This document shows, piece after piece, positions 7,622 to 58,930 of a stretch of 64,000 nucleotides of DNA. The translations under genes were made by a program, and so were the position numbers. The DNA lies in IMG/VR virus record IMGVR_UViG_3300029554_000001, one strand, 5' to 3'. The notes under the pieces are model-generated. The model was not told the DNA's origin. It did no database searches and worked only from the letters and a program-made list of their open reading frames with translations. Numbering within the stretch: the stretch's first letter is position 1; each line of letters starts with the position of its first letter. This stretch comes from a virus.

Positions 7622-8587
7622 ATGGAACATACGAATTTTATGATGATGATTGGAGTTGTTGCAAGTGGTAAATCCACTCTTGCTCAAAATCTCAAAAATA
7701 TGCTGACTAAAATGGGTCAGCCTACAATGATTGTTTCATCGGATGAAATTCGTGAAACTGTTTTTGGAGATGTAAACGACCAGACTCATAATGACGAGGT
7801 TTTTAAGGAAGTTCGTCGCCGTATTAACAATTGCATTGATAAAATGAATGTTATTGTTGATGCAACTAATATTAATGTTAAATCTCGTAAGAGCTTGTTG
7901 GATATTGTTCGCAATAAGGAGAATGTTACTAAAGTAGCTTATGTTATGACTACTCCCGTTGCTGTTTGTAAAAGACAGAATAAAGCGAGAACTCGTACAG
8001 TTCCCGAAGAAGTTATTGACAGACAGATTGGCAAGTTTGAAATTCCTTTTTATGAAGAAGGTTTTGATACAATTAATTTAATTGGTTGGAATTTTAATCA
8101 GTTTGAAGTAATTGTCCCTCAGTCTAATTGGACTACTGATGATGATTATATTATGAGTTTGATGAAGGGCTTTGACCAGAAAACTTGTCATCATAAGTAC
8201 ACTTTAGATGAACATTGTAGAATTTGTGCCGAAGAAGTTGCTAAAAGAACTGATGATAAGATTCTTTATAGAGCTGCACAAATTCATGACTTAGGCAAGT
8301 TAACTACTGGACAGCCCAAGGAAGATGGTTCTGGAGATTATAGATATTATAGTCATCATAATGTAGGAACGTATGACCTTTTAGCAAATCTTGATTGTAT
8401 TGGATTTACTAACATGGACGATATCTTAAAATGTCTGTTTTATGTTAATTTTCATATGCTTCCATTCTTTCTTGAAACTGAAAAGTCTAAATCTAAATGG
8501 GAAAAGATTATGGGAAAAGAAAACCTTGATAAGCTTTTTTTGTTTAACGAATGCGATAAAATTGCAAGTGGGACTTCTGAAAAATAA
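7622..8587 (+). CDS. Polynucleotide kinase-like P-loop domain fused to an HD phosphohydrolase (RNA end-healing enzyme candidate)
   Basis: N-terminal GVVASGKST P-loop, SSDEIRE and DATN (Pnk/AAA_33-like). C-terminal HHKYTLDEHC...QIHDLGK...YYSHHNVG (HD motif). Sits directly upstream of the RNA ligase. Confidence 0.75.
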   Translation: MEHTNFMMMIGVVASGKSTLAQNLKNMLTKMGQPTMIVSSDEIRETVFGDVNDQTHNDEVFKEVRRRINNCIDKMNVIVDATNINVKSRKSLLDIVRNKENVTKVAYVMTTPVAVCKRQNKARTRTVPEEVIDRQIGKFEIPFYEEGFDTINLIGWNFNQFEVIVPQSNWTTDDDYIMSLMKGFDQKTCHHKYTLDEHCRICAEEVAKRTDDKILYRAAQIHDLGKLTTGQPKEDGSGDYRYYSHHNVGTYDLLANLDCIGFTNMDDILKCLFYVNFHMLPFFLETEKSKSKWEKIMGKENLDKLFLFNECDKIASGTSEK

Positions 8588-8622: not shown

Positions 8623-9981
8623 ATGAATTTTCATTTTAAGAAAGAGTTTCTTTGGCATCCTCTTTATGAATATGTTATGACTGTTAAAAGAAAGTATATT
8701 CAATCTTATACTCTCCTTAACAACGAACCTTGTCCTGAAAATTACAATTTTAATGATTGGCTCGACAGAATTTTTGAGGCGTGGGAGAATATTACTCCTA
8801 AACTTAATGAAAAGTTGAGTAAGATTTTTGACCCTCTTCAGATTACTTGTTATGACCATTATGTACTTTTTAAGTATAAAGGTTTTATTGAATTGTCTGA
8901 TGATTATGATTTAAATTCTTTTTTTGAATTATATGATGGTCTTTATAGGGAATGTCGTTCTTGTGTCTTTGATTTAAAGAATGACGAAATTGCTTTGGCT
9001 TCTTTGGCAAAGTTTAAGAATTATGGCGAGGATGATGGTGATTGGTCTCCTAAAAAAATTAGGTCTAAATATCATTTTGCTCATGCAGTTTTTATTACTA
9101 ATAAACTTGATGGTTCTTATCAGCAATATAGATATATTGCAGAGGAAGACAGAATTTTAGGTTCTGGTTCTCAGGCATTAGACCCTGTAGAATCTTGGAG
9201 ACTTGCGGCGGGTTATAAACTTTTATCTGAGGGACAAAAAGAATTAATTAGGGATTACCCTGATTACACTTTTATTTTTGAATATATTTCTCCAAAAAAT
9301 CCCATTGTTGTTAAGTATGATGAATCTCAAGAAGGATTGTATTTACTTGCGGCAAGGGATGTTAAGGATGGCAAGGAAGTTTCTTTTGATATTCTTAGTG
9401 ACATGGCTGAGGAATATGATTCTAAAATGACTCAATGGTATTATAATGCTACTTTGTTTAGTGTTTTAGCCGATACCGATAATTATCTTTCTTCTGAAAA
9501 AGAAGGTTGGGTAGTTGATATGGTTGATGGATATAAAAATCATTTTAGATGCAAAATTAAAACATCAGATTATGTCTTGATACATAAAGCATTATCTAAA
9601 AATATATCTCCTAACGCAGTTATTAATGCTATTCATGAAGATAGATTTGATGACTTTTTAGCAAAGTGTCCTGAAGCGTATAGAGAATTAATTATGCAGT
9701 ATTATAATACTGTTCATGAATATCTTAATCTTTATAAAGAGCTTATTGATAAAATTTTAATTAAAGGAAATGCAGAATGTGTAGATTTTTGGAATGATAA
9801 AAAAGAAGCAATGCTTTGGATGGATAAACTTCCCAAAGTGTTAAAGGGCAGAACAAAGACCAAATATCTTGGACAGGAAAATGATTTCTTGTTAAAGAGA
9901 CAGTTTTGCTATAAATATTCTGAAATTACAAAAGCCCTACACAATTTAAAGCGTTTTAAAAATTCTATGGTGGAAGGGTAA
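8623..9981 (+). CDS. RNA ligase, T4 Rnl1-like family
   Basis: Nucleotidyltransferase motifs: I NKLDGS, III FIFEYISPKNPIVVKY, IV EGWVVDM, V RCKIKTSDY. Confidence 0.8.
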   Translation: MNFHFKKEFLWHPLYEYVMTVKRKYIQSYTLLNNEPCPENYNFNDWLDRIFEAWENITPKLNEKLSKIFDPLQITCYDHYVLFKYKGFIELSDDYDLNSFFELYDGLYRECRSCVFDLKNDEIALASLAKFKNYGEDDGDWSPKKIRSKYHFAHAVFITNKLDGSYQQYRYIAEEDRILGSGSQALDPVESWRLAAGYKLLSEGQKELIRDYPDYTFIFEYISPKNPIVVKYDESQEGLYLLAARDVKDGKEVSFDILSDMAEEYDSKMTQWYYNATLFSVLADTDNYLSSEKEGWVVDMVDGYKNHFRCKIKTSDYVLIHKALSKNISPNAVINAIHEDRFDDFLAKCPEAYRELIMQYYNTVHEYLNLYKELIDKILIKGNAECVDFWNDKKEAMLWMDKLPKVLKGRTKTKYLGQENDFLLKRQFCYKYSEITKALHNLKRFKNSMVEG

Positions 9982-27024: not shown

Positions 27025-28284
27025 ATGGAATATTGTAAATATCTTATTTTAGTAGACCCTAATAATAATGGGGTTGATTCAAATAAATTCTACAAAATGG
27101 CTGGAAATGGTGATGATACGTTTACTGTAGAATTTGGTCGTGTTGGTGCCACTCCTCAGACTAAAACTTATCCTATGTCTAAATGGAATTCTACTCTTGC
27201 CTCTAAGTTGAAGAAGGGATATGTTGACCGTTCTGATTTGATGCAGGAAGTTATTGCTGATTCCAAAATTGAGGATAAGTCTAATGGAGTAGATGAATTT
27301 AGTTTGGTTCAAAACCTATCTGTCCGAGAGATTGTTAAACGTCTTTGGGATTATGCTAATAAGACTATTCAATCTGCTTATTCTGTTCGTGCTGAAGCTG
27401 TTACTCAGGCTATGATTGATGCTGCTCAGGAAAAGATTGACTATATTGCAGCGAATTACAAAAACTGGTCTGTTGAGGAATTTAACAAGAATTTAAATGA
27501 GTTGTTCATTATTGTCCCTCGTAAGATGAAGCGTGTTTCTGACTGTCTTGTTTCTGATTCTTCTGAATACGACAAAAAGCTTTCTGAGGAACAAAGCTTG
27601 CTTGATACTATGGCTGGTCAGGTTTATAAGCCAAAGGCGAGAATTGTTGATGCTGGTTCTGAAATTAAGGCTTCTGAAAGTATTTTACAGAAGATGGGTA
27701 TTACCATGGAAGAAGCTACTCAGGAAGATATTGCTAAAATTAAAAAGGCAATGGGGGATTCTGCTGGAAAGTTTTACAAGGCTTGGCGTGTTACTAATCT
27801 TGAGACTGAAGAAAGATATCAGAAATTTACTTCAGAAAATAATATTGGTAATGTAAAATTATTCTGCCATGGTAGCCGAAATCAGAATTGGTTTAACATT
27901 CTTAAGATGGGTTTAAAGATTCGCCCCGCAGGAGTTATTACAACAGGTTTGATGTTTGGAAAGGGCGCCTATTTCTCGAATAGTGAGAAGTATCATGGAG
28001 GGGTAGCCAAATCTATTGGTTATACTTCTTTAGGTGGATATTGGACTCGTGATTATCAGAATTGCGGCTTTATTGCTTTCTTTGATGTGGCTATTGGAGA
28101 TAGTGTTGATGCCTATTCTTTTGATTCTAAGTATTATTCTTATAATCTTGAGAGGCTAAAAAAGGACAATCCTAAAGCTTGGAGTTTGTGGGCTCATGGC
28201 AATACTTCTATGCTTCGCAACGATGAAATTATCGTTTACGATGATAGACAAATGACTATTCGATATTTAGTGGAGATTAGATAA
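27025..28284 (+). CDS. WGR domain + PARP catalytic domain protein
   Basis: N-terminal KFYKMAGNGDDTFTVEFGRVGA (WGR). C-terminal H-Y-E signature: LFCHGSRNQNW, GKGAYFS, NDEIIVYD. Confidence 0.8.
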   Translation: MEYCKYLILVDPNNNGVDSNKFYKMAGNGDDTFTVEFGRVGATPQTKTYPMSKWNSTLASKLKKGYVDRSDLMQEVIADSKIEDKSNGVDEFSLVQNLSVREIVKRLWDYANKTIQSAYSVRAEAVTQAMIDAAQEKIDYIAANYKNWSVEEFNKNLNELFIIVPRKMKRVSDCLVSDSSEYDKKLSEEQSLLDTMAGQVYKPKARIVDAGSEIKASESILQKMGITMEEATQEDIAKIKKAMGDSAGKFYKAWRVTNLETEERYQKFTSENNIGNVKLFCHGSRNQNWFNILKMGLKIRPAGVITTGLMFGKGAYFSNSEKYHGGVAKSIGYTSLGGYWTRDYQNCGFIAFFDVAIGDSVDAYSFDSKYYSYNLERLKKDNPKAWSLWAHGNTSMLRNDEIIVYDDRQMTIRYLVEIR

Positions 28285-29042: not shown

Positions 29043-29531
29043 ATGATTGGTGAAATGCAGACTGTTTCTAGCGTAACTTTTGGTATTCCTTCTGATTTTC
29101 CTTCTCTTGTAGACTCTGTTGTGGGTTCTCTTAAAAAGGGATATAGAGATTATTGTTTTACAAATAAGCAACTAAAAGAAATTATTGAAAAATGCCACGA
29201 GGCAAATGTAAGTTTTGCTTATCGTAAGCAGTTAGATGAAGATTACAAGATTGAATATATTGAACTTATTCCTTGTACTTTTTATTTCGCAGAAACAGTC
29301 GAGGAAAATAAAGTCGAAAACATTCAGGTAGCAATGGAAAATCTTCCTGTGGCATTAATTTTCTGTCCTAAAAATAATAAGACTGATATTACTATTGATG
29401 CTGATTATCAGGAAAAGAATGAAAAAAGGGCAAAGAGTTATAAGAAGCTTGCATATTTCGATGATGATGGTTGTCCAGTATATATTGAAGACCTTACGAG
29501 AATGAGAAAGGAAAAAGAAAATGGAGTATAA
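29043..29531 (+). CDS. Hypothetical protein
   Basis: 162-aa ORF; no family recognised. Confidence 0.6.
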   Translation: MIGEMQTVSSVTFGIPSDFPSLVDSVVGSLKKGYRDYCFTNKQLKEIIEKCHEANVSFAYRKQLDEDYKIEYIELIPCTFYFAETVEENKVENIQVAMENLPVALIFCPKNNKTDITIDADYQEKNEKRAKSYKKLAYFDDDGCPVYIEDLTRMRKEKENGV

Positions 29532-30354
29532 AACATTAGGCGATAGAATGAAAGGAGCTTACGAGAATAAATATCGCAATTATCTTCCTGAGAATCTTCC
29601 TGTTATTGTTAGGCTTGATGGGCAGCACTTTCATTCCTTCTGTCGTGGTATGAAGAAACCTTTTGACCCAATTTTTGTTAAAACTATGCAACAAACTATG
29701 CTTAAGCTCTGTGAAATTATTCCTAATGTTAAGTTTGGTTATGTTGAATCTGATGAAATTTCTCTTGTCATGATTCAAAGTGAAAGAAATTCTCAGCCTT
29801 GGTTTGATAATAATATTCAAAAGATTGTTAGTACATCTGCTGCGCTTTGCACTCTTTGGTTTAATAATTATTTTGCTGAGAATACTATTATTGATACAAC
29901 TTTGGATATCTTTAATATGGACCAAGATTCTTATGATTGGCGAATGGTTCGTAAGGGAAAAGAAATGCCTACTTTTGATAGTAGAGTATTTGTTGTCCCT
30001 GCCTTTGAAGTGCATAATTATTTTGTTTGGAGACAGCAGGATTGTACTCGAAATTCTATTCAGGCAGTTGCTCAATCTTTGTATCCTCAAAAAGAACTTC
30101 ATGGTATTAACACTACTAAATTGCAGGATAAGATGTTTACTGAAAAGGGTGTAAATTGGAACGATTATACGACAGTAGAGAAACGTGGTACTTGTGCTTA
30201 TCGTGTTCCTACTACTGTTATTGGCAAAGATGGTCAGGAGGCTATTCGTTATAAATGGGTTCTTGATTATGAAATGCCGATTTTAACAAGTGAAGAGGGT
30301 AAAAACTTTATTAGTCAAAAGGTATTTACCAATGAGTTTATTCAAAAATCCTGA
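29521..30354 (+). CDS. Thg1-like protein (tRNA-His guanylyltransferase family 3'-5' nucleotidyltransferase)
   Basis: IVRLDGQHFHSF, KPFD, GYVESDEISLV, FDSRVFVVP....YFVWRQQDCTRNS and EKRGT align with the Thg1/TLP signature blocks. Confidence 0.85.
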   Translation: MEYKTLGDRMKGAYENKYRNYLPENLPVIVRLDGQHFHSFCRGMKKPFDPIFVKTMQQTMLKLCEIIPNVKFGYVESDEISLVMIQSERNSQPWFDNNIQKIVSTSAALCTLWFNNYFAENTIIDTTLDIFNMDQDSYDWRMVRKGKEMPTFDSRVFVVPAFEVHNYFVWRQQDCTRNSIQAVAQSLYPQKELHGINTTKLQDKMFTEKGVNWNDYTTVEKRGTCAYRVPTTVIGKDGQEAIRYKWVLDYEMPILTSEEGKNFISQKVFTNEFIQKS

Positions 30355-32940: not shown

Positions 32941-33375
32941 ATGTCTAAGAAGAGTTTTAAATATCGTAATTAGGTTGTTTGTCCGAAATGTCATCAAAAG
33001 TATTCAGCTAATTCTAATTATGAATGTCCTTATTGTCATACAAAATTCTACGACTTGAGTTTTGTTGATACAAAAACAGAAAATGGTTCGCCTGTTTATG
33101 TAAGATATAAATGTAATGGGTATACTGGCTTTGCAGAAAATCCTAAAGAAGAGTATGATGTATTTATTACAGTAGCAACATTAGGGATTAATGTCGAAAA
33201 CAATTTTAGTCATAATTATGATTATGTTTATAATTTTCGAAATGAATTTTATGCAAGACATTTACAAACCTCTTCTTTTAATGTAAAGGCAGAAATGGAA
33301 GCATTAGCTACTTCAGGAGAAAACGGTGAGCCTATTCTCTTTGTAGTTGAAGCTGTCCCTAAGAAGAAAAAATAA
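32941..33375 (+). CDS. Hypothetical Zn-ribbon protein (1 in-frame TAG)
   Basis: MSKKSFKYRN-TAG-VVCPKCHQ...CPYCH. TAG 32971 joins to the track ORF at 33055. Confidence 0.6.
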
Positions 33376-34090: not shown

Positions 34091-34564
34091 ATGTCAGTGT
34101 CTATTATTCAGGGAGATGTCCTTAAGACTTCGGCAAAGTATATTTGTCATCAGGTTAATACCTTTGGTGTAATGGGCGCTGGTGTTGCTCTTCAAATTAA
34201 GAAGAATTATCCTCATGTTTATTTGGAGTATAATAAGTTTTGTAGTTATCATACTCCTGAAGAGCTCTATGGTAAAGTTCTTCGAATTGAGGAAAATAAA
34301 GATAGAGTTTTCTTGAACATGTTTTCTCAGATTGGTATTGGTGGACCAAATGTAAACACCAATTATGAATATTTTCATGAATGTCTTCTTAAGATTCGTG
34401 AAATGATTCCTATTGGAGAAGAGATTGCTATGCCTTATATGATTGGGTGTGGTCTTGCTGGTGGAGATTGGTCTATTATTAGCGCAGATATTTCTGATAC
34501 TTTAGGACTAAGCCATATTGTACGTTTGTATGATTTTAATGGCGTGACTTCTGTGAAAAAGTAA
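34091..34564 (+). CDS. Macro domain protein (ADP-ribose binding/hydrolase)
   Basis: ICHQVNTFGVMGAGVALQIKKNYP and MPYMIGCGLAGGDW match the macro-domain signature. Confidence 0.8.
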   Translation: MSVSIIQGDVLKTSAKYICHQVNTFGVMGAGVALQIKKNYPHVYLEYNKFCSYHTPEELYGKVLRIEENKDRVFLNMFSQIGIGGPNVNTNYEYFHECLLKIREMIPIGEEIAMPYMIGCGLAGGDWSIISADISDTLGLSHIVRLYDFNGVTSVKK

Positions 34565-35953: not shown

Positions 35954-36691
35954 ATGAAACATACTGTTATGGATTAGATTACAGATAAAGAATTTGAACA
36001 AATAGTTAAAAATTCTTATTCTTATCGAGAAGTAGCTGAAAAATGTGGGTATTGTTGTATAAGTGGAGCTTCTTCTAATATTGTGAAAAAGAGAATTTAG
36101 AAATTAAATTTAGATGTTTTTCATTTTAAAAAATCGCTTCATGTTTATCGACCAGATGATGAAATTTTTGTTGAGGATTCAAAAGTAGGGCAGACAGTTT
36201 TAAGAAAACGTTTTTTAGCCTTGAATGTAGTTGAATATAAATGTTCAATATGTGGATAGGAACCATTTTGGAATGGAAAGCCTTTATCGTTAACATTAGA
36301 CCATATAAATGGTAAAAACCATGATAACAGGTTTGACAATTTAAGGTGGGTTTGTCCTAATTGTGATAGATAGCTTCCCACTTTTGGACGGCGTAATGCT
36401 ATTCACGAAGCAAAATATAATTATTGTGTTGATTGTGGAATTGTTATTACTTTTAATGCAACAAGATGTAAAAAATGTGCAGATAAAGTTAAAGCAGAAA
36501 AACAAAAAAATATCAACAAACCAAACAGAGAAGAATTGAAAAAATTAATTAGAGAAAAGAATTTTTTAACTTTAGGAAAAGAGTTTAATGTCTCTGATAA
36601 TACTATTAGAAATTGGTGCGAAAGTTATAATCTTCCAAAAAAAACAAGAGAAATAAGATTAATAAAAGACCAAGATTGGGAATTTTTGTAA
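35954..36691 (+). CDS. HNH homing endonuclease (4 in-frame TAG)
   Basis: LDHINGKNHDNRFDNLRWVCPNCD (HNH), Zn ribbons, and a C-terminal HTH-like NTIRNWC. TAGs at 35975, 36098, 36257 and 36371; codon-by-codon check runs to TAA 36689. Confidence 0.8.
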
Positions 36692-36797: not shown

Positions 36798-36921
36798 GTT
36801 GACACTCACAGCAAATTTATTTTATGTTTTTGGAATAACGTCGTGTAAGGTTCGACTCCTTATTAACAAATCCCTTGAGCAAGGAATAGTTAACCGTGGA
36901 TGGCTAGAAAAAAGTGTCAAG
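36798..36921 (+). ncRNA. ACAGCAA-stem module A (T-arm plus capped-hairpin payload)
   Basis: 5' G-TTGACACT-C-ACAGCAA ... AGTGTCAA-G 3' (8 bp, compensated variant of TAGAC/GTCTA). Payload is the T-arm TAAGG-TTCGACT-CCTTA (36846-36862) then the capped helix TTAAC...GTTAA. Confidence 0.7.
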
Positions 36922-36934
36922 ATTGCTCACTTAT

Positions 36935-37025
36935 GGAGTAGTAAGCCTAATTGGTAAGGCACCAGTTTGCTAAATTGGTAGTAGCTTGAAAGAGCGTACT
37001 GGTTCGAGTCCAGTCTACTTCGCCA
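36935..37025 (+). tRNA. tRNA-Ser (anticodon GCT), class II
   Basis: GGAGTAG/CTACTTC, CCAGT-TTGCTAA-ATTGG, long variable arm, ACTGG-TTCGAGT-CCAGT, GCCA. Confidence 0.85.
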
Positions 37026-37146
37026 CAGAATTTATTATAGCTGCTCGTAGTAAATTCGTAGTATTAGAAGCAGTAAAGGTACGAGTATGGTATCCGGCAC
37101 AGGAGTGGTCGTTAAGGGCGAGATAAAGCTGAACTCCTTTTTATAT

Positions 37147-37265
37147 CCCCATTAGTGTAATGGAGCATTCTCGTTAACTGACGTTGAGTAAACACTAAGG
37201 TAGCTCCTTAGTGATAACAGACACATCGGGAGAGGAAGTTGGTTCGAATCCAATTATGGGGTCCA
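37147..37265 (+). tRNA. tRNA-like gene with a 53-nt insertion in the anticodon loop (anticodon unresolved)
   Basis: Acceptor CCCCATT/TATGGGG (one mismatch), anticodon stem TCTCG (37169-73)/CGGGA (37227-31), T-arm GTTGG-TTCGAAT-CCAAT, TCCA. The insert contains an 8-bp hairpin CACTAAGG/CCTTAGTG. Confidence 0.55.
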
Positions 37266-37400
37266 GTAACCACGATACCGCCTTGAAAAAGGTCGTGGAG
37301 GTTCGCCTAACAGATGGAGTATCGCTTAATGTTAGGATGTGTATATGGCGCACCTAAGTTCAGACCGTTCAGAACCTACAACCATATTAGCGGTGACAGC

Positions 37401-37501
37401 TTGGAGAGACAGCAAATATGCGGCAACTGGTGTAATAATAAAAGTAGCCATGGACAATACTTTTATTATGTTTGGAGTTCGATTCTTCGATGCCGCTCCA
37501 A
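37401..37501 (+). ncRNA. ACAGCAA-led atypical tRNA-like RNA (module variant B)
   Basis: TTGGAG-AG-ACAGCAA-ATAT, then acceptor GCGGCAA/ATGCCGC, a 12-bp hairpin ATAATAAAAGTA/TACTTTTATTAT (loop GCCATGGACAA), T-arm TGGAG-TTCGATT-CTTCG, and T-CCA. The leader TTGGAG pairs with CTCCAA, overlapping the CCA. Confidence 0.5.
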
Positions 37502-37860
37502 AAGACAGAATGGTTAGATATTTCTTGATGTCTTCAAAAAACAAGAAATCCGTAAGGTCTGTACGAAACATTCCTTGGAATACAGTTTAGCTGGTTACAA
37601 TGTATTCGACACTGAACCGCCCTCCAAGTCTGATGGACTGGTAACAATAGAAAGACCGTTGCTTTGCTTAACTGGGTACGTTAAACCCTTATGCAATGAG
37701 CAAAACTGATAATGAAAATGACCAAGATAGTTGAGTGTAAGCCCCTTATAAGGAATAGCCTCTCCTCAGCCAAACCGAGGACAGATAAGTGAAAAGCTGG
37801 TCTGTCAGTAGTTATCAGTTTTTGTTCCTTATATATTTAATAAAATAAAAGGGTGTTTTT
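37502..37860 (+). ncRNA. ORF-free structured region (unknown RNA)
   Basis: GC-richer than the coding DNA. Long-range pairing AACTGATAA (about 37697)/TTATCAGTT (about 37812) and several local hairpins. Track ORFs here lack RBSs. Confidence 0.3.
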
Positions 37861-38931: not shown

Positions 38932-38960
38932 TTGACATCTTAAAGATGATATGCTATAAT
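38932..38960 (+). promoter_or_regulatory. sigma70-like promoter (extended -10) driving an RNA cluster
   Basis: TTGACA, 17 nt spacer, TGcTATAAT. Confidence 0.65.
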
Positions 38961-38992: not shown

Positions 38993-39109
38993 GTAGACTC
39001 TTACAGCAAATTTTCTAAAGGATAACACAATTGTCTTGAAAACAATCATTAGCGAGTTCGATTCTCGTCAGAGGGCGCTCTGTGGTGAATAATACGCAAA
39101 AGAGTCTAG
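38993..39109 (+). ncRNA. ACAGCAA-stem module 1 (anticodon-arm mimic, T-arm and capped helix)
   Basis: G-TAGACTCT-T-ACAGCAA ... AGAGTCTA-G. Payload is ATTGT-CTTGAAA-ACAAT (39030-39046; same loop as tRNA-Ser-TGA), T-arm GCGAG-TTCGATT-CTCGT, and the capped helix CAGAG-GGCG-CTCTG. Confidence 0.7.
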
Positions 39110-39370: not shown

Positions 39371-39504
39371 GTAGAGACTAACAGCAATTTTAAAATTATG
39401 TTAAAAAACCAAGCTCCCATTCTTCGGTTCGAATCCGAACGTCTTCAGTTGAAGTATGTAGCCAAGTGGTTTAAGGCAGGAGCCCATAATAACAATGTCT
39501 CTAG
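39371..39504 (+). ncRNA. ACAGCAA-stem module 2 carrying a circularly permuted tRNA-Gln-like body
   Basis: G-TAGAGAC-TA-ACAGCAA ... GTCTCTA-G. Internal order: GCTCC, var CATTC, T-arm TTCGG-TTCGAAT-CCGAA, acceptor 3' CGTCTTC, cap AGTTG, acceptor 5' AAGTATG, TA, D-arm GCC-AAGTGGTTTAA-GGC, A, GGAGC. Confidence 0.7.
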
Positions 39505-39604: not shown

Positions 39605-39669
39605 GTAGACGCTTACAGCAATTTTAATTGTACTTATCTGTTAAATAAGAATACACAAAAAGCGTCTAG
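39605..39669 (+). ncRNA. ACAGCAA-stem module 3 (65 nt; bare anticodon-stem-loop mimic, GUU loop)
   Basis: G-TAGACGCT-T-ACAGCAA ... AGCGTCTA-G. The apical hairpin CTTAT-CTGTTAA-ATAAG (39633-39649) has the same 7-nt loop as tRNA-Asn at 40971. Confidence 0.7.
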
Positions 39670-40000: not shown

Positions 40001-40029
40001 TTGACAAAATGAAAATTTTATGCTATAGT
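40001..40029 (+). promoter_or_regulatory. sigma70-like promoter (extended -10)
   Basis: TTGACA, 17 nt spacer, TGcTATAGT. Confidence 0.65.
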
Positions 40030-40106: not shown

Positions 40107-40237
40107 GTAGACTCTAACAGCAACTTTACAATCACAAATGCTAAGGACCTGTTTGTTGGAGGTTCGAATCCTTCACTCCCGACCATCGGGAGTTAGCTCA
40201 ACGGATAGAGCAACAGATTTTGTAAAAATGAGTCTAG
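40107..40237 (+). ncRNA. ACAGCAA-stem module 4 carrying a circularly permuted tRNA with encoded ACCA
   Basis: G-TAGACTC-TA-ACAGCAA ... GAGTCTA-G with a second helix TTTACAA/TTGTAAA. Internal order: CCTGT, TTGTT, T-arm GGAGG-TTCGAAT-CCTTC, acceptor 3' ACTCCCG, A-CCA-T, acceptor 5' CGGGAGT (perfect 7 bp), TA, D-arm GCTC-AACGGATA-GAGC, A, ACAGA. Confidence 0.75.
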
Positions 40238-40292: not shown

Positions 40293-40410
40293 GTAGACAC
40301 GTACAGCAAAATTACTTGATGCTTTAATGTGGAAAATTAACGATAAGGTTCGACTCCTTAATCTTCTTTAGAAGATGCGTGGTTGCTGGAAATCAAAAAA
40401 ACGTGTCTAG
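40293..40410 (+). ncRNA. ACAGCAA-stem module 5 (anticodon-arm mimic GGA, T-arm and capped helix)
   Basis: G-TAGACACG-T-ACAGCAA ... CGTGTCTA-G. Payload is TTAAT-GTGGAAA-ATTAA (40324-40340), T-arm TAAGG-TTCGACT-CCTTA (identical to module A), and ATCTTCT-TT-AGAAGAT. Confidence 0.7.
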
Positions 40411-40504: not shown

Positions 40505-40970
40505 TAATTGCATCTCAATTGGCAGATAGCGAATGCAATTTATATTAAACTGCCCGATTCAGCAAGGATGGCTAAAGCCTTGTCGGTGCTCCATATATTT
40601 GAACTCATTTTTAGTCCGTTAAGCTAAAACCCTCTCTCCCGACCGAAGAAGGTGTAGAATACAAGTTAATGGTATTCGAATGGGAAGAACACCAACTATA
40701 AGATAAGGCAACTTACCAAGGTGCAAATATGGCAAGAAAACCTTTTGGACGAAATTGGTGCCGTGCTTACGGGGATAGATAGTTGCGCATCTATCTAAAC
40801 AAAAACTCTGATTACTGCAACTAAATCGGGGTAGGTATTGAGGTTATGGGTCATGTAACCTTAAAACACAATAAGCCGAGCATACTGCTTATTGCTCCTA
40901 ACAGGTGGTGCTGAGGATGAACAACAAAAGCCAAGTTATAGAGTTCTTGTAAAAAACTCTATTGTTATTT
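40505..40970 (+). ncRNA. ORF-free ~465-nt structured region (unknown RNA)
   Basis: No ORF in any frame in the track. GC-richer than flanks. Local helices include ATTGCAT/ATGCAAT and GATAGAT/ATCTATC. Confidence 0.3.
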
Positions 40971-41047: not shown

Positions 41048-41048
41048 A

Positions 41049-41125
41049 AAGTGGAGGGTGTAGGTTCGAGTCCTGCCCTGCTCGTGGGAAACCCTTGCAG
41101 GAAGCTGCTAGGTACAGCGCCACTT
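41049..41125 (+). ncRNA. Circularly permuted tRNA-like domain (no ACAGCAA stem)
   Basis: Closing stem AAGTGG/CCACTT. Order: var AGGGT, T-arm GTAGG-TTCGAGT-CCTGC, capped helix CCTGC...GCAGG, AA, D-arm-like GCTG-CTAGGTA-CAGC, G. Starts 1 nt after the CCA of tRNA-Asn. Confidence 0.5.
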
Positions 41126-41181
41126 AGAATTTCTTTCACCTTATTACGCGAAATATGGGATTGAGATGTTGCTTTAGTCGG

Positions 41182-41207
41182 GTTCTTTTACAGCAGAAAA
41201 TAAGAAC
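41182..41207 (+). ncRNA. Minimal hairpin bearing a TTACAGCAG loop (possible degenerate module)
   Basis: GTTCTT-TTACAGCAGAAAAT-AAGAAC. Confidence 0.3.
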
Positions 41208-41399
41208 GCACCTGTTTAATTGGGTTTTTTAGTTCAGTAAAAACAAGAAAAACCTCGGTTGTTTAGAAATTTTCTTCTGATATTGAATGAAAACATTTAG
41301 AGAATTCTCTCATTGCAATGCCGAAAGGTAGCAAGATATGAAAACAGCTAATTGGTGAACATATTTGCTACCGAGTAGGGATAAGAGAGAATTAAATAT

Positions 41400-41475
41400 G
41401 CTTTGGTAGCTCAATTGGTAGAGCAGTGGACTGAAAATCCACGTGTAGCCAGTTCGATTCTGGCCTAAAGCACCA
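41400..41475 (+). tRNA. tRNA-Phe (anticodon GAA)
   Basis: GCTTTGG/CTAAAGC, GTGGA-CTGAAAA-TCCAC, GCCAG-TTCGATT-CTGGC, ACCA. Confidence 0.9.
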
Positions 41476-41476
41476 T

Positions 41477-41560
41477 TGCTGGCGAGTGAAACGGATATAT
41501 AAATCACGCTTGGCTCATACCCAAGTAATAGTGGGTTCGACTCCCATGCTTCAGCAACCA
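41477..41560 (+). tRNA. tRNA with CAT anticodon (Met or Ile2), irregular acceptor/T junction and oversized D-loop
   Basis: CTTGG-CTCATAC-CCAAG is a perfect anticodon arm. T-arm GTGGG-TTCGACT-CCCAT. Acceptor TGCTGGC/TTCAGCA has 2 extra nt (GC) after the T-stem. ACCA. Confidence 0.55.
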
Positions 41561-41584: not shown

Positions 41585-41893
41585 ATGACTATTAATTTTA
41601 AGATTTACATTTATTAGACAGCAAATAATAAAAAGTTTGTTTATAGATGTCCTCATTGTAATAAAGGGATAATGCAAGTAGCAGAAACTAAAACTGCTAA
41701 AGATGAAACTAATTTTTTATCTTGGAATTATACTTGCCCAGTTTGTAAGAAGCAGATTGTCTCTATTGAAAAAGACGGTTGTTCTTCTTTTAAAAGTGTG
41801 TTCCCTCCAATGACTCAAATTAGTGATAAAGAATTTACTGATATTAAAAAGGATGTAGGAGAGAAGGGTATTTATCTATTCTCTGAAACATAA
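41585..41893 (+). CDS. Zn-ribbon protein (1 in-frame TAG)
   Basis: ATG 41585 and TAG 41615 are in frame with the track ORF at 41672. CPHC...CPVC. Confidence 0.55.
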
Positions 41894-41896
41894 AAT

Positions 41897-43950: not shown

Positions 43951-44110
43951 AGGGGTGTAGCCAAGCGGTAAGGCAAGGGACTTTCAAGAATTAATTCAAG
44001 TAGAATCCAGTGGATTAGTTTAAAGACTGTTTCGACGGTATATTGGTTCAAGTCCAATATTCTTGACCAGACTCCCTGACTCGAAGGTTCAAATCCTTCC
44101 ATCCCTGCCA
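43951..44110 (+). tRNA. tRNA-Gln (anticodon TTG) interrupted by a 85-nt tRNA-like insert
   Basis: AGGGGTG/CATCCCT, Gln-type D-arm GCC-AAGCGGTAA-GGC, anticodon stem AGGGA (43976-80)/TCCCT (44073-77), GAAGG-TTCAAAT-CCTTC, G73, CCA. Loop halves CTTT (43981-84) and GAC (44070-72) sum to CTTTGAC. Confidence 0.75.
43985..44069 (+). tRNA. Nested tRNA-like gene inside the tRNA-Gln anticodon loop
   Basis: Perfect acceptor CAAGAAT/ATTCTTG, TA, D-arm ATTC-AAGTA-GAAT, stem CAGT/ACTG with a 14-nt loop, T-arm ATTGG-TTCAAGT-CCAAT, then A-CCA. Confidence 0.6.
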
Positions 44111-44139: not shown

Positions 44140-44284
44140 GTAGACGCTTACAGCAAACAATAATAAAATCAAATTCTAGTAAAAAAGATATAAATTAATA
44201 TTTAAAAAAGATTTTGGGTATTGTTCCTTGCTAATTAGTTTATGATGCTTTCATGATTCTCCTTTGTTAGTATTATGCGTCTAG
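44140..44284 (+). ncRNA. ACAGCAA-stem module 6 (AT-rich ~120-nt payload)
   Basis: G-TAGACGC-TT-ACAGCAA ... GCGTCTA-G. Confidence 0.6.
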
Positions 44285-44414: not shown

Positions 44415-44479
44415 GTAAACCCTTACAGCAATTTAACTACTTAATTTTTGCTTGAAAAAAGATTATGGATAGGGTTTAG
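44415..44479 (+). ncRNA. ACAGCAA-stem module 7 (65 nt)
   Basis: G-TAAACCCT-T-ACAGCAA ... AGGGTTTA-G (G>A in the 5' strand compensated by C>T in the 3' strand). U/A-stem hairpin containing the CTTGAAA string (44451-57). Confidence 0.65.
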
Positions 44480-44495: not shown

Positions 44496-44585
44496 GTAGA
44501 CACTAACAGCAATTTTAAAAAGTATTCTATATATATATTAAAATGCCAAAATTTAATTGTACATATTAACTTTTAAAGTGTCTAG
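44496..44585 (+). ncRNA. ACAGCAA-stem module 8 (AT-rich payload)
   Basis: G-TAGACACT-A-ACAGCAA ... AGTGTCTA-G. Confidence 0.6.
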
Positions 44586-44595
44586 GATTTTATAT

Positions 44596-44731
44596 AGGAC
44601 GGTAGCTTAATCGGTTTAAGCCTCCGACTTATCTGAGAGTAGTTTAAAAGTAAAACTGTTAATGTAAGTGCAAGACTTGCCTTTCAGACCAAATCGGAAG
44701 ATTGTGAGTTCGAGTCTCACCCGTCCCACCA
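44596..44731 (+). tRNA. tRNA-Ile (anticodon TAT) interrupted by a 59-nt minihelix insert
   Basis: AGGACGG/CCGTCCC (A1.C72 mismatch), D-arm GCTT..AAGC, anticodon stem TCCGA (44623-27)/TCGGA (44694-98), GTGAG-TTCGAGT-CTCAC, ACCA. Loop halves CTTAT (44628-32) and AA (44692-93) sum to CTTATAA. Confidence 0.75.
44633..44691 (+). ncRNA. Nested acceptor-stem/D-arm minihelix ending in ACCA
   Basis: CTGAGAG/CTTTCAG (7 bp, one G.U), TA, GTTT-AAAAGTA-AAAC, short hairpin, then A-CCA. Confidence 0.55.
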
Positions 44732-44749: not shown

Positions 44750-44819
44750 GTAGACTCTTACAGCGATTACTTAGAGACTTGTGATGTGGGATTACATATG
44801 TTTTGAAAAATGAGTCTAG
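44750..44819 (+). ncRNA. ACAGCAA-stem module 9 (loop variant ACAGCGA)
   Basis: G-TAGACTC-TT-ACAGCGA ... GAGTCTA-G with internal hairpin TGTGAT-GTGGG-ATTACA. Confidence 0.6.
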
Positions 44820-44934: not shown

Positions 44935-45005
44935 GCGGCGTAGTATAATGGTCAATGCGCACGGCTCTAACCCGTGAAATGCTCGTTCGATTCGAAGTCG
45001 CCGCT
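44935..45005 (+). tRNA. Candidate amber-suppressor tRNA (anticodon CTA)
   Basis: Perfect anticodon arm CACGG-CTCTAAC-CCGTG (44960-44976). Acceptor GCGGCG/CGCCGC, TA, D-arm GTA-TAATGGTCAA-TGC. T-loop TTCGATT with an imperfect stem GCTCG/CGAAG. No encoded CCA. Confidence 0.6.
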
Positions 45006-57114: not shown

Positions 57115-57177
57115 GTTAGACTCTCACAGCAAACTACAAAAAACTTTTATTTTGGAAAAAGGACAAAAAGAGTCTAG
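57115..57177 (+). ncRNA. ACAGCAA-stem module 10, in the 5' leader of the Ro60-like gene
   Basis: GT-TAGACTCT-C-ACAGCAA (57117-57132) ... AGAGTCTA-G (57169-57177). Followed by the hairpin TCCTTT-AGA-AAAGGA (57178-57192), which includes the AAGGAG RBS. Confidence 0.65.
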
Positions 57178-57199
57178 TCCTTTAGAAAAGGAGAAAATT

Positions 57200-58930
57200 A
57201 TGTATAACTACAACAATCCTAACAAGAAGAATAACACTAAGGCTTGGGCTCCTAAGCCTGAAAAGCCTGTTACTAAGTCCAACCGAGTTAGCCGTAAGGC
57301 TTCTTTCATGGACAAGGTTGAGAATACTGCCAAGGGCTACTACACTCAGGTTGCAATTCCTTCTCTTCCTGCTGATAAGCAGTACACTTCTAATGGTGCT
57401 ATTGCCTACAAGTCCTCTGGTTCTGCTCTTCTTGATATCAATACTTCCATTACCGCTCTTCGTAGTCTTCCTGATGGTAATATTGTGAAGAAGTTCCGTG
57501 CAGCTTATTCTGAGAATCCTCGTCTCGCTATTCGTTGGCTGTTCTATGCTGGCGATATCCGTGAGGGTCAGGGTGAGCGCCGTCTCTTCCAGATTTGCCT
57601 TAAGGATATGATGAACAATGGTGGTGCTCAGATTGTGGCGAACCTGATTCCTATGATTCCTGAGTATTCTCGTTGGGATTATATCTATGTTGTCATGGAT
57701 AATCCTACTACTAAGCCTGTTGTTCGTGAACTGATTCGTAAGCAGTGGAAGGAAGATATGGCTAATATGAAGAAGGGCAAGTCCATTAGCCTTATGGCGA
57801 AGTGGCTTGATAGTGCTTCTTCTCACAGCCATGATACTCGTAAGCGTGGTCTTAAGACTATGGATATGCTCGGTCTGACTGAACGTGAGTATCGTAAGGG
57901 GCTGTCTGCTCTCCGTAAGCACCTTGATGTTGTTGAGCGTAAGATGTCTTCTCAGAATTGGCAGAGCATTAATTACGAGACTGTTCCTTCTAAGGCAAAC
58001 CTTAATTACAACAAGGCTTTCCTTCGTAATGATGAGGAGCGCCGTCGTGCCTATTTGAACGCTCTTACTAAGGGCGAGGCAAAGATTAATTCTTCCGTAT
58101 CTAATCCTTGTGACATTGTTCACAAGTATTGCGAGAATGATTGGGGTACTTCTCCTCATTCTTATGATGCCGCCCTTGAAGGCATGTGGAAGGCTCTTCC
58201 CAATCTTGTAACCGATGATAGTTCCACTATTGTTGTTGCCGATGGTTCTGGTTCTATGTGTGCTACCGTGGGTCGTACTCGTATGACTGCTCTTGAGGTT
58301 GCTAACTCTCTTGCAATTTACTTTGCAGAGCGTGCTAAGGGTGCATACAAGGGTCGTTACATTACTTTCTCTGCACGTCCTCAGATGGTTAATGTTAATC
58401 ATGACTCTTTGCGTGCAAATCTTAGAGAAGCTGCTCGTCATAGTGAGGTTGCTAATACCAACCTTGAAGCAGTATTTGACCTGATTCTTGATACTGCAAT
58501 TAAGAATCATTCTCCTCAGAGTGATTTGCCTAAGAATATTCTGATTATCAGTGATGGTGGTTGGGATTCTATGGTAAATATCCGTAATGTTAGCACTGGC
58601 AGTAATGGTTACGGTGGTTATGGTTATTGGGGTTATAACAGCACTCGTGCTACTGCTAAGGAAGCTCCTGCTTTCCTTAAGTCCATTGAGCAGAAGTACA
58701 AGAACGCTTCCTATGAGTGTCCAAAAATTTGTTTTTGGAATGTGTGCGGAAATGGTAACACTAATAATGGTCTTCCTATGACCAAGAATGACTATGGTAT
58801 CATGGTCAGCGGGTTTAGTGTTCAAACTTTGAAAATGATTCTCAGTGGCAAGACTAATCCTTGGGATGCACTTATGGAAGTGGTCTTGGATAAGCGTTAT
58901 GACAAGATTGAGGAGCTTGCTTTTAAGTAA
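57200..58930 (+). CDS. Ro60-like protein: helical N-domain (DUF2828/TROVE-like) plus vWA domain with MIDAS
   Basis: GAIAYKSSGSALLD, ENPRLAIRWLFYAGDIREGQGERRLF, MIDAS VVADGSGSM. C-terminal ICFWNV...NNGLP...YGIMVSGFSVQTLKMI parallels Ro60 LIVCGM..NGF.IADP.DRGMLDMCGFDTGALDVI. Confidence 0.65.
   Translation: MYNYNNPNKKNNTKAWAPKPEKPVTKSNRVSRKASFMDKVENTAKGYYTQVAIPSLPADKQYTSNGAIAYKSSGSALLDINTSITALRSLPDGNIVKKFRAAYSENPRLAIRWLFYAGDIREGQGERRLFQICLKDMMNNGGAQIVANLIPMIPEYSRWDYIYVVMDNPTTKPVVRELIRKQWKEDMANMKKGKSISLMAKWLDSASSHSHDTRKRGLKTMDMLGLTEREYRKGLSALRKHLDVVERKMSSQNWQSINYETVPSKANLNYNKAFLRNDEERRRAYLNALTKGEAKINSSVSNPCDIVHKYCENDWGTSPHSYDAALEGMWKALPNLVTDDSSTIVVADGSGSMCATVGRTRMTALEVANSLAIYFAERAKGAYKGRYITFSARPQMVNVNHDSLRANLREAARHSEVANTNLEAVFDLILDTAIKNHSPQSDLPKNILIISDGGWDSMVNIRNVSTGSNGYGGYGYWGYNSTRATAKEAPAFLKSIEQKYKNASYECPKICFWNVCGNGNTNNGLPMTKNDYGIMVSGFSVQTLKMILSGKTNPWDALMEVVLDKRYDKIEELAFK

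Follow-up and report, generated by a model that had tools for sequence, protein, structure and literature searches.

What does a small RNA that ends in a likeness of an anticodon arm do in the tRNA array of a phage? The question is raised by a 63-nt module at 39606-39668 (+ strand) of the window, as we call the whole 64,000-nt stretch of viral DNA that was analysed. A sequence-only reading had placed this element at 39605-39669 (65 nt) and described it as a conserved stem plus a rod ending in CTTAT-CUGUUAA-ATAAG. Both the description and the coordinates are borne out. The closing stem of this module (module 3) pairs UAGACGCUU with AAGCGUCUA and is followed by ACAGCAA and then by the rod with its terminal CUUAU-CUGUUAA-AUAAG:

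39606-39614 and 39660-39668, + strand: P1, the 9-bp closing stem, 5′ strand TAGACGCTT and 3′ strand AAGCGTCTA (read from the sequence)
39615-39621, + strand: ACAGCAA motif
about 39628-39632, paired with 39652-39656, + strand: P2
39633-39649, + strand: anticodon-arm-like hairpin, with CTTAT at 39633-39637, loop CTGTTAA at 39638-39644 and ATAAG at 39645-39649

The minimum free energy fold of module 3 lacks the anticodon-like hairpin; because folding of single modules is unreliable in AT-rich sequence, comparative evidence was used for the module structure. A covariance model trained on the modules of other phages only, R1, finds module 3 over its full length with 59 bits and an E-value of 2.2e-12. 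Hairpin and loop are unchanged in seven close relatives, to which we give little weight as these are about 95% identical overall. Module 3 has no match to the YrlA family of Rfam (RF02553; Rfam 15, E ≤ 5).

The module family

Module 3 is one of 11 modules in the window, all on the + strand, which share P1 and ACAGC(A/G)A. Their constant part is a terminal P1 of 7-9 bp with ACAGCAA on its 5′ side (ACAGCGA in module 9); the distal part, here called the cargo, is variable. Ten of the modules lie inside the tRNA array, 12-20 kb away from the gene of a protein that models as Ro60-like (ORF 57200-58930), and one lies between a promoter and this ORF. The other ten modules are the following:

36799-36920, + strand: module 0; variant P1 TTGACACT/AGTGTCAA and ACAGCAA; T-arm-like hairpin 36845-36863 in the cargo; weak R1 match
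38994-39108, + strand: module 1; P1 38994-39002 / 39100-39108; ACAGCAA; anticodon-arm mimic 39030-39046 with loop CUUGAAA; further hairpins, T-arm-like at 39052-39068 and an extra CAGAG-GGCG-CTCTG
39372-39503, + strand: module 2; P1 TAGAGAC/GTCTCTA; ACAGCAA 39381-39387; permuted tRNA-like cargo with T arm 39423-39439, D-arm-like GCCAAGTGGTTTAAGGC and an anticodon-stem analogue GCTCC/GGAGC leading into P1
40108-40236, + strand: module 4; P1 40108-40114 / 40230-40236; ACAGCAA 40117-40123; YrlA-type tRNA-like domain as cargo, with T arm 40157-40175, a 7-bp acceptor-like stem closed by CCA, and a D arm
40294-40409, + strand: module 5; P1 TAGACACGT/ACGTGTCTA; ACAGCAA; hairpin TTAAT-GUGGAAA-ATTAA 40324-40340; further hairpins, T-arm-like at 40344-40360 and ATCTTC-TTTA-GAAGAT
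44141-44283, + strand: module 6; P1 TAGACGC/GCGTCTA and ACAGCAA; long, AT-rich cargo
44416-44478, + strand: module 7; P1 TAAACCCT/AGGGTTTA and ACAGCAA; U/A-stem hairpin with loop GCUUGAA; R1 34.5 bits, E = 3e-6
44497-44584, + strand: module 8; P1 TAGACACT/AGTGTCTA and ACAGCAA; R1 28.5 bits
44751-44818, + strand: module 9; P1 TAGACTC/GAGTCTA and ACAGCGA; hairpin TGTGA-UGUGGGA-TTACA 44780-44796; R1 28.3 bits
57117-57176, + strand: module 10; P1 57117-57124 / 57169-57176; ACAGCAA 57126-57132; R1 36.9 bits, E = 8e-7

Module 10 is flanked by a promoter-like site (TTGACA/TATAGT) on the 5′ side and by the Ro60-like gene on the 3′ side. Loose regular-expression detectors gave many false matches in the AT-rich DNA and were tightened; an alignment of 16 short modules with MAFFT was ragged at the 3′ end, and R1 was built from a cleaner set of 10 sequences. 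A scan of the 64-kb window with R1 at E < 10 returned known modules only, all of them on the + strand. None of the modules was called as a tRNA by ARAGORN or by Rfam RF00005, even at E ≤ 5, and at the same threshold modules 0-3 and 5-10 matched no Rfam 15 model, self-cleaving ribozymes included. In related phages the positions of the modules are orthologous, and the cargo of module 8 varies among these phages with P1 and the motif constant. In a megablast search of GenBank phages with the whole array, a tRNA-Thr match was all that was found, and the array is therefore without a close cultured relative.

The modules are a family of structured RNAs that is tied to one gene. Among 80 related viral contigs with homologues of the Ro60-like protein (43-99% identity), a stem-ACAGCAA-stem arrangement is found beside the gene in most of the upstream regions listed. 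The modules lie near the homologous gene and on the same strand, and their stem sequences differ between contigs, with compensating changes. The same modules are present in the five cultured phages LeBron, VpaE1, LMTA-57, PK-3 and EFGrKN; cultured phages with modules include Bacillus, Listeria, Enterococcus and Felix-O1-like phages as well as mycobacteriophages, and phages of Firmicutes, Actinobacteria and Proteobacteria alike retain P1 and ACAGCAA. In VpaE1 (Felixounavirus) the modules sit in gaps of the tRNA array, and in LeBron and several contigs they lie downstream of the gene. No module with the ACAGCAA motif was found within 5 kb of the homologue in Aeromonas phage Aeh1. The gene strand has ACAGCAA in 213 distinct contexts and the opposite strand in 15, with 22-32 for scrambled heptamers. 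In an alignment of 100 distinct R1 matches, which is fitted to the R1 model itself, P1 is 100% paired with compensatory changes at 7 of 7 pairs, and the distal hairpin is 89.5% paired with compensatory changes at 5 of 5 (slid controls, 31-54%). The common stem had been proposed from the sequence as a protein-binding platform, and it behaves as such a platform would: P1 and ACAGCAA are conserved, P1 covaries, and the modules are syntenic with the gene.

Mimicry of the anticodon arm

Anticodon-arm mimicry is a real and recurrent trait of the module family. The 91 non-redundant modules of other phages contain 19 CUNNNAA hairpins, a 28-fold excess over the 0.67 ± 0.8 expected (200 shuffles, maximum 3), and the 11 modules of the window contain two, vs. 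0.145 in shuffles (P = 0.011). The shuffle test on the 91 modules is free of a bias that affects the loop statistics among R1 matches, where the training of R1 on anticodon-type members favours such loops: there, 23 of the 43 seven-nt distal loops among 100 distinct matches are CUNNNAA. An anticodon-like loop is thus carried by 23 of these 100 matches, or about a quarter of the family, and the cargo of the other roughly three quarters consists of T/D/acceptor mimics, UGGG-type loops and AT-rich rods. The mimic loops keep C32, U33, A37 and A38 on covarying stems of 4-5 bp; between lineages the stems change in a compensatory way and CU...AA is retained. The displayed triplets are those of real tRNAs, UUU (Lys) being the commonest, followed by GUU, UGA, GCU, GCA and GUA.

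The loop of module 3 had been read as the exact anticodon loop of the phage's tRNA-Asn(GUU), and a direct comparison of the two loops confirms this: the tRNA has CTTGG-CTGTTAA-CCAAG. Likewise, ATTGT-CTTGAAA-ACAAT in module 1, at 39030-39046, does carry the loop of tRNA-Ser(UGA), as had been claimed. Since loops of the CUNNNAA type are present in 8 of the 17 tRNAs of the window, a loop of this type would match one of them exactly by chance in 12.5% of cases, and identity with a tRNA loop of the phage is weaker evidence than the enrichment of the hairpins. For two other modules the proposed assignments stand in part. The hairpin TTAAT-GTGGAAA-ATTAA is indeed present in module 5 (40324-40340), but the loop, which had been interpreted as GGA (Ser), has a G at position 32; no matching tRNA was found in the window, and the loop fits better into a second recurrent class, xUGGGAx. 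In module 7 the string CTTGAAA is there, but the register of the U/A stem gives the loop GCUUGAA, which makes the case ambiguous.

The candidate partner protein and known Ro60/Y-RNA systems

The gene that accompanies the modules in related phages is represented in the window by one ORF:

57200-58930, + strand: candidate partner protein gene; 576 aa; Pfam DUF2828 and DUF7788/vWA; PHROG 850 ‘RNA-binding protein’

Its product models as a distant, divergent Ro60-like protein. When the AF2 model of the protein (pLDDT 68.6) was compared with the PDB using Foldseek, the top eight matches were all Ro60 (2i91, 9nep, 1yvr, 1yvp, 9nen), with a probability of 1.00 and E-values of 5e-7 to 6e-6. The alignments extend over about 600 columns and cover both parts of a Ro60 protein, the ring of HEAT-like repeats and the vWA/MIDAS domain after it, at TM-scores of 0.32-0.39 and with the stated pLDDT of 68.6. 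Pfam TROVE was not found in the protein, sequence and profile searches of PDB chains did not return Ro60, and NCBIfam gave no match. The likeness is at the level of the fold only. GenBank homologues carry the annotation ‘Ro-like RNA binding protein’, and by tblastn homologues are present in 695 of 50,697 GenBank phage records, among them model phages that infect E. coli, Salmonella, Listeria, Staphylococcus, Enterococcus, Bacillus and Mycobacterium. The homologue in phage JohannRWettstein, which we take to be Bas63, is 32% identical (tblastn). Bas63 gp130, a Felixounavirus DUF2828 protein, has been called Ro60-like and is reported to counter the ppl defence system, for which the authors propose degradation of DNA, not tRNA (PhageMaP preprint, PMC11482910). 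The Bas63 gene is located directly upstream of a tRNA array, and the same authors guessed that some annotated tRNAs might be Y RNAs but stopped short of identifying the RNAs, which here are defined by P1 and ACAGCAA (PMC11482910).

Y RNAs are encoded beside Ro60, are sometimes co-transcribed with it, and mimic tRNA (PMC4201824). The closest parallels to the modules are the bacterial and phage YrlA and YrlB RNAs (RF02553; Chen et al. 2014, PMC4201824). These are small RNAs too; a genome likewise has several of them, encoded on the strand of an adjacent Ro60-type gene, and their 5′ and 3′ ends form a terminal stem. The T arm, D arm and closed acceptor stem of YrlA recur in modules 2 and 4, and shorter hairpin-type companions, as in YrlB, are found among the modules. 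Module 4 matches the full length of the YrlA model (40131-40229, 42.2 bits, E = 9e-7), as does the middle module of LeBron (39.8 bits, E about 1e-5 to 1e-6), both below the gathering score of 69. There are clear differences, however. The modules have ACAGCAA after an extra outer stem in place of the proposed Ro-contact GNCGAAN0-1G of YrlA, their partner would be a DUF2828 protein and not a Pfam TROVE Ro60, and up to 11 copies are dispersed through the tRNA array here. Also, the conserved resemblance of YrlA to tRNA resides in the stem-loops of the T and D arms, between which lies an acceptor-like stem (PMC4201824), whereas some of the modules mimic the anticodon arm. The known Ro-contact motifs (GGUCCGA; GNCGAAN0-1G / CGAA) are absent from the modules, with ACAGCAA in their stead; the one exception is module 4, where an internal CACAAAUGC shows a weak alignment with the YrlA motif. 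The possibility that modules 2 and 4 are tRNA genes in circular permutation, which would need splicing, was considered and dropped in view of the full-length YrlA match of module 4 and the Ro60-like gene.

The Ro60 of Thermus phage phiLo binds two upstream Y-like RNAs (Yrl1/Yrl2) and the host PNPase (PMC12135203). It resembles our system in that a phage Ro60-type protein has Y-like RNAs just upstream of its gene, with a 5′-3′ stem flanking an internal loop that contains a short conserved motif. In contrast, the phiLo protein is a recognisable Ro60, its RNA motif is CGAA, and binding has been demonstrated there and is putative here; the word anticodon has no occurrence in that paper (PMC12135203). 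Metazoan Y RNAs and Ro60 (RF00019; PDB 1yvp) share with the modules a conserved lower stem, which in the metazoan RNAs binds the Ro ring, and a variable distal module for other partners, and it is to these structures that the predicted fold of the DUF2828 protein matches. The modules have no sequence similarity to metazoan Y RNAs, lack their bulged GGUCCGA helix and carry different cargo. We found no Rfam family or literature description of a P1-ACAGCAA RNA, and some YrlA-type members, for example those of mycobacteriophages, may be among the 22 phages of Chen et al. 2014.

Proposed function and competing explanations

We consider it probable that the modules are Y-RNA-like small non-coding RNAs, which act as RNA partners of the divergent Ro60-like protein encoded by the phage itself. 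The family has the appearance of a hitherto undescribed branch of Ro/Y-RNA systems in a tRNA-repair setting. Both the binding and the cellular function we infer along the following lines. The modules and the tRNA array would be transcribed together, from strong promoters of the sigma-70 type, and the modules presumably released through processing of the adjacent tRNAs. P1 and the single-stranded ACAGCAA opposite an A-rich 3′ strand may form the protein-binding platform, as synteny, conservation and covariation suggest. The distal variable part would then be a cargo in the likeness of portions of tRNA. In modules 2 and 4 it is a complete elbow of the YrlA type, with T arm, D arm and an acceptor stem that is closed and ends in CCA, in module 1 an anticodon arm plus T arm, and in module 3 the anticodon arm alone. 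By analogy with Ro/Y RNPs, this cargo may link the Ro-like ring to proteins by which tRNA, or its anticodon arm, is recognised, or may control the access of the ring to these proteins.

A tRNA-conflict setting for the modules is plausible. The window encodes a T4 Rnl1-type RNA ligase, a PNK-like kinase and a Thg1-like enzyme, and in Listeria phage LMTA-57 the homologous gene is adjoined by RtcB. Because of the Rnl1-type, PNK-like and Thg1-like genes and the Bas63 homologue that counters a host defence, the likeliest arena is a conflict over tRNA integrity during infection, in which the RNPs would sequester or monitor anticodon-directed enzymes, or organise the repair or decay of damaged tRNA. 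Could the DUF2828 ring with interchangeable anticodon-arm RNAs (Lys-UUU, Asn-GUU, Tyr-GUA, Ser, Cys) even act as a programmable bait, which captures or neutralises host anticodon-directed defence nucleases or reports their activity to repair enzymes? We regard this as a speculative idea that is rather unlikely to be right; if it were, the loop repertoire would be a record of the tRNAs attacked by host defences.

A simpler version had been proposed from the sequence, namely that the modules with an anticodon arm, which cannot be charged, serve as decoys or sponges that titrate or mis-direct host anticodon nucleases (with PrrC/RloC, colicin-E5/D-like proteins, PARIS AriB, and retron or Septu effectors as putative targets) and that the common stem is merely a handle for stability or protein. 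It is a special case of the Ro60-partner explanation rather than a true alternative, and we think it doubtful. The common stem, the synteny with the Ro60 gene and the recurrent anticodon-arm mimicry uphold that interpretation in part; the Ro60-like gene itself and the YrlA-like modules 2 and 4 had been missed. The mimicry is real and recurrent, with tRNA-specific loop features on covarying stems, and the displayed triplets belong to real tRNAs, most frequently UUU. Lys-UUU is targeted by PrrC and PARIS, and GUN anticodons by colicin E5, which we count in its favour. Rnl1 and PNK are the answer of T4 to PrrC, and the presence of both in this phage suggests pressure from anticodon nucleases. A homologous protein does counter a defence system, but the system countered by Bas63 gp130, ppl, is proposed to degrade DNA (PMC11482910). 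Moreover, about three quarters of the family carry other cargo, the phage's own tRNA set already includes replacements for these anticodons, and known Ro/Y RNPs function in RNA decay and quality control, as tethers or as gates (PMC4201824, PMC12135203).

The modules might instead act in cis, as RNase III/E sites that punctuate the transcripts of the tRNA array, with module 10 as an autoregulatory operator in the 5′ UTR of the Ro-like mRNA. Module 10 does lie between promoter and ribosome-binding site, its AAAGGAC (57158-57164) can, as read from the sequence, alternatively pair with GTCCTTT (57177-57183) just 5′ of the Shine-Dalgarno sequence, and the other modules are located between tRNAs. 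We nevertheless judge this improbable: in LeBron and several contigs the modules are downstream of the gene, a cleavage site has no need of variable tRNA-mimic cargo, and the YrlA-type members resemble stable Ro-bound RNAs (PMC4201824). A cis role would also be compatible with a role in trans, since M. smegmatis Y RNAs are processed from an rsr precursor (PMC4201824). That the modules are decayed tRNA genes, pseudogenes or fragments from duplications in the array with functionless relics as loops and the stem as a processing or spacer element, is very unlikely in our view. Their place among tRNA genes, their T-arm, D-arm and anticodon-arm pieces, and the probable origin of YrlA-type RNAs from tRNA according to Chen et al. 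(PMC4201824) would fit. However, P1 and ACAGCAA are foreign to tRNA and are kept with compensatory changes across phages of three phyla, the modules keep to one strand and are associated with a single gene, and the mimic stems are unlike those of the phage's own tRNAs (CTTAT vs. CTTGG; ATTGT vs. CTAGA) and covary while CU...AA stays. Inverted-repeat ends and many copies per genome recall MITE-like miniature mobile elements with P1 as terminal inverted repeat, which we find hardly conceivable given that copies are almost all on one strand (213 vs. 15) and at orthologous positions in related phages, and that Pfam scans of 20 window ORFs gave no transposase domain. The inner P1 positions also change compensatorily between copies and lineages, and what is preserved is therefore RNA pairing and not a transposase site.

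The Ro60-partner explanation would give a function to DUF2828, a common orphan protein whose RNA partners had not been defined in the literature that we searched. P1 and ACAGCAA provide a searchable signature by which unannotated gaps in phage tRNA arrays become annotatable as small-RNA genes. The tRNA mimicry of Y RNAs would be widened from the T/D/acceptor elbow to the anticodon arm. Finally, the Rnl1/PNK/Thg1 repair genes and the reported counter-defence phenotype offer a testable link between Ro/Y biology and tRNA conflict, for which cultured phages exist.

The ACAGCAA module family

In the window sequence, module 3 (39606-39668, + strand) reads UAGACGCUU-ACAGCAA-UUUUAA-UUGUA-CUUAU-CUGUUAA-AUAAG-AA-UACA-CAAAA-AAGCGUCUA. 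Its two ends pair in a 9-bp terminal stem (P1); between them runs a rod capped by a 5-bp stem with the 7-nt loop CUGUUAA. A motif search combined with a stem-closing script located eleven P1-ACAGC(A/G)A...P1' copies in the window, with all listed copies on the + strand.

Module starts in the window (motif plus closing stem)
36799, +: module 0
38994, +: module 1
39372, +: module 2
39606, +: module 3
40108, +: module 4
40294, +: module 5
44141, +: module 6
44416, +: module 7
44497, +: module 8
44751, +: module 9
57117, +: module 10

The outer P1 bases UAGAC/GUCUA are kept among these modules, while the inner bases vary with compensation (CUC/GAG, CGC/GCG, ACG/CGU, CCC/GGG). Between the two strands of P1 lies cargo of ~45 to ~125 nt. 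In modules 2 and 4 it is a permuted tRNA-like body with T and D arms and a loop-closed acceptor-like stem (7 bp and closed by CCA in module 4), and the anticodon-stem analogue runs into P1; module 1 carries an anticodon arm and a T arm, and module 3 an anticodon arm and nothing else. The Rfam model of YrlA, a bacterial Y-RNA-like family, matches module 4 over its whole length (40131-40229, E = 9e-7) in E-value mode, its 42.2 bits lying below the gathering score of 69. Consensus promoters at 38932-38960 (12/12) and 40001-40029 (11/12) precede the module clusters.

Synteny with a Ro60-like gene

Upstream of ORF 57200-58930, module 10 separates the gene from a TTGACA/TATAGT promoter-like site. 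The 576-aa product contains Pfam DUF2828 and DUF7788/vWA and belongs to PHROG 850 ‘RNA-binding protein’. Sequence methods did not detect Ro60 for this product. The eight best PDB matches of an AlphaFold2 model built from a 34-sequence alignment (pLDDT 68.6) are all Ro60 (2i91, 9nep, 1yvr, 1yvp, 9nfa, 9nen), with E = 5e-7 to 6e-6 over ~600 aligned columns that cover both the helical repeats and the vWA domain, at TM-scores of only 0.32-0.39. Independent agreement comes from the GenBank annotation of mycobacteriophage homologues as ‘Ro-like RNA binding protein’ and from a preprint describing the Bas63 homologue gp130 as structurally Ro60-like (PMC11482910). AAAGGAC (57158-57164), in the 3' portion of module 10, is able to pair with GTCCTTT (57177-57183) just 5' of the GGAG ribosome-binding site of the gene (region 57158-57193); judging from sequence, this pairing, in competition with P1, could be an autoregulatory switch.

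Homologues of the protein were found in 80 viral contigs (43-99% identity), and in most of the upstream regions printed a stem-ACAGCAA-stem element adjoins the gene, often 2-3 in tandem. The P1 pairs are unlike in sequence yet complementary, e.g. GCGACCGACU/GCGGUCGAG, GGGGCGCGA/GCGCCCC and AAGACACNN/..GUGUCUU. At these loci the gene strand has ACAGCAA in 213 distinct contexts versus 15 occurrences on the other strand, composition-matched heptamers occur 22-32 times, and a perfect 7-bp closing stem surrounds 55% of ACAGCAA occurrences versus ~20% in controls. With tblastn, homologues were detected in 695 GenBank phages, including Felixounavirus, mycobacteriophages such as LeBron and Itos, and phages of Listeria, Staphylococcus, Enterococcus, Bacillus, Campylobacter, Aeromonas and Vibrio; LMTA-57 and EFGrKN are placed in Herelleviridae by their records.

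Modules in named phages
LeBron: 3 modules directly downstream of gp53, the middle one YrlA-like (39.8 bits)
VpaE1: 4 modules, AGAAGACC-NNNN-ACAGCAA...GGUCUGG, in tRNA-array gaps, the array being 3' of the gene
Listeria LMTA-57: 3 modules immediately upstream of the gene
Bacillus PK-3: 4 modules
Enterococcus EFGrKN: 2 modules

No module occurs within 5 kb of the homologue gene in Aeromonas Aeh1. LMTA-57 has an RtcB ligase gene 1.3 kb downstream of its Ro60-like gene; bacterial rsr and Y RNAs often share operons with RtcB/RtcA (PMC7790460). In the Felixounavirus phage VpaE1, unannotated gaps of the tRNA array gave two Rfam matches below threshold, one to permuted tmRNA (32.5 bits) and one to tRNA-Sec (39 bits), at 8817-9000 and 9439-9525 of locus L201.

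The covariance model R1 was trained on ten modules from other phages (alignment A5), each verified against its locus, with no window sequence. On the 64-kb window it recovered module 3 at 39606-39669 (59 bits, E = 2.2e-12) with all pairs intact, and its 9 matches at E < 10 were all known modules on the + strand. Across 55 sources it gave 110 matches at E <= 1e-3, and wherever a locus has a defined orientation they lie on the gene strand. The derived alignment has P1 paired in 100% of cells with compensatory changes at 7/7 pairs, and the distal hairpin in 89.5% with 5/5, versus 31-54% in slid controls; because this alignment was fitted to the model, the pairing figures are somewhat inflated. 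These analyses show the RNA family, its structure, its covariation and its synteny with the gene.

Anticodon-arm mimicry

The sequence-only reading had proposed that modules display the anticodon loops of the phage's own tRNAs. The module 3 loop is indeed identical to that of tRNA-Asn(GUU), whose stem differs (CTTGG/CCAAG), and module 1 (ATTGT-CUUGAAA-ACAAT, 39030-39046) has the same loop as tRNA-Ser(UGA). The other two cases are weak: the GUGGAAA loop of module 5 is present, but it has G at position 32 and matches the loop of no tRNA found in the window, and module 7 has the U/A stem, but in a register that gives the loop GCUUGAA instead of CUUGAAA. At a chance of 12.5% per loop, an exact match to a tRNA loop of the same phage is only mildly informative.

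Loop form was assessed in 91 non-redundant modules (viral loci L120-L199) by counting hairpins that have 7-nt loops on stems of 4 bp or more, against 200 interior shuffles. CUNNNAA hairpins number 19 versus 0.67 ± 0.8 (maximum 3 in 200), and YUNNNRN loops 45 versus 12.1 ± 3.5. By eye, ~3 of the 19 lie inside near-complete tRNA bodies or mis-closed candidates and the rest in true modules, mostly ~30 nt in from the 5' end. Of 100 distinct matches to R1, 43 have a 7-nt distal loop and 23 of these a CUNNNAA loop, with the triplets UUU (9), GUU (6, mostly orthologues of module 3), UGA (3), GCU (2), GCA (2) and GUA (1). Many different stems bear these loops; the cultured phages PK-3 and EFGrKN have ACAAU-CUUUUAA-AUUGU and ACAU-CUGCAAA-AUGU, respectively. 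Intermediate forms combine anticodon and T arms. Some members of the family do mimic the anticodon arms of tRNAs.

A second recurrent distal loop class is xUGGGAx/UUGG. UGG(G)-rich loops (UGUGGGA, AGUGGGA, UUGGA, AUUUUGGUU) were seen at 44780-44796 and 40324-40340 and at the viral loci L146, L162, L188, L191, L201 (VpaE1) and L202; they recall D-loop G18-G19 and may mimic another tRNA face.

Genetic setting and interpretation

The window is an AT-rich phage segment with in-frame TAG codons, found in many ORFs (e.g. 41586-41895, 32941-33375, 35955-36690), one of them HNH-like. An amber suppressor tRNA (CUA anticodon) lies at 44935-45005, and TAG appears to be a sense codon in this phage. ARAGORN reports 17 tRNAs between 31976 and 45005. 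Rfam adds two, at 43951-44107 and 44596-44728 (49 bits each; neither called by ARAGORN), with anticodon-loop inserts of 87 and 62 nt, far below the length of a group I intron; both inserts end close to a CAGAC motif. The 87-nt insert resembles a tRNA nested in a tRNA: it is closed by a terminal stem of 7-8 bp of its own (TCAAGAAT/ATTCTTGA), contains the T-arm-like hairpin ATTGG-TTCAAGT-CCAAT and has a 3' CCA. The ~800 nt non-coding, relatively GC-rich stretch 37020-37800 has several T-arm-like hairpins (around 37240 and 37480), an ACAGCAA at 37409 with a long-range closing stem (37400-37628) and no Rfam match at E <= 1; it could harbour intron-containing tRNAs or larger module variants. Two more structured-looking non-coding stretches of the array span 40505-40970 and 41048-41400. 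A weak YrlA match lies at 41052-41122 (22.8 bits, E = 0.35), and at 41485-41547 there is a near-threshold tRNA (27.6 bits) whose anticodon loop has CAU and whose D region is unusual.

RNA-repair and ADP-ribose toolkit
7622-8587: P-loop kinase, PNK-like (match to polynucleotide kinase)
8623-9981: T4 Rnl1-type RNA ligase (Pfam RNA_lig_T4_1; PHROG 562)
27025-28284: PARP-like protein (PARP+WGR)
29521-30354: Thg1-like tRNA 5'-end repair enzyme (3'-5' polymerase)
34091-34564: PHROG 335 ‘phosphatase’, macro-domain-like by eye, no Pfam match

T4 Rnl1 and Pnkp mend tRNA-Lys cut by the anticodon nuclease PrrC. In Bas63, loss of the homologous gene g130 sensitises the phage to the ppl defence system (PMC11482910).

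Could the anticodon-arm modules be decoys for anticodon nucleases, as the sequence-only reading speculated? Such a role, a sub-hypothesis of a Y-RNA-like reading, is compatible with the module family, structure, synteny and mimicry, but we consider it unlikely. Known Ro/Y RNPs work as tethers and gates, with precedents in RYPER, a Ro/Y RNP with PNPase (PMC4201824), and in phiLo Ro60-Yrl-PNPase (PMC12135203), and most family members carry other cargo. Strand bias, compensatory change or cross-phylum conservation contradicts each of the readings of the modules as relic tRNA fragments, pure processing signals or MITEs.

Phage Ro60/Y RNA systems and YrlA tRNA mimicry are already known; for Bas63, one preprint went no further than a guess that there might be Y RNAs among its ‘tRNAs’ (PMC11482910). 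In Rfam 15 and the searchable literature, which did not include the phages listed by Chen et al. 2014, we found nothing that describes RNAs of the ACAGCAA type as a family, their pairing with DUF2828 proteins, their spread through tRNA arrays in up to 11 copies or their anticodon-arm mimicry.

The evidence best supports the modules as Y-RNA-like RNAs that partner a divergent phage Ro60; their excision, their binding to the protein and their function are inferred. P1 and ACAGCAA would be the constant handle for the protein and the tRNA-mimic cargo the variable effector end, of which module 3, with its anticodon arm only, would be the minimal form.
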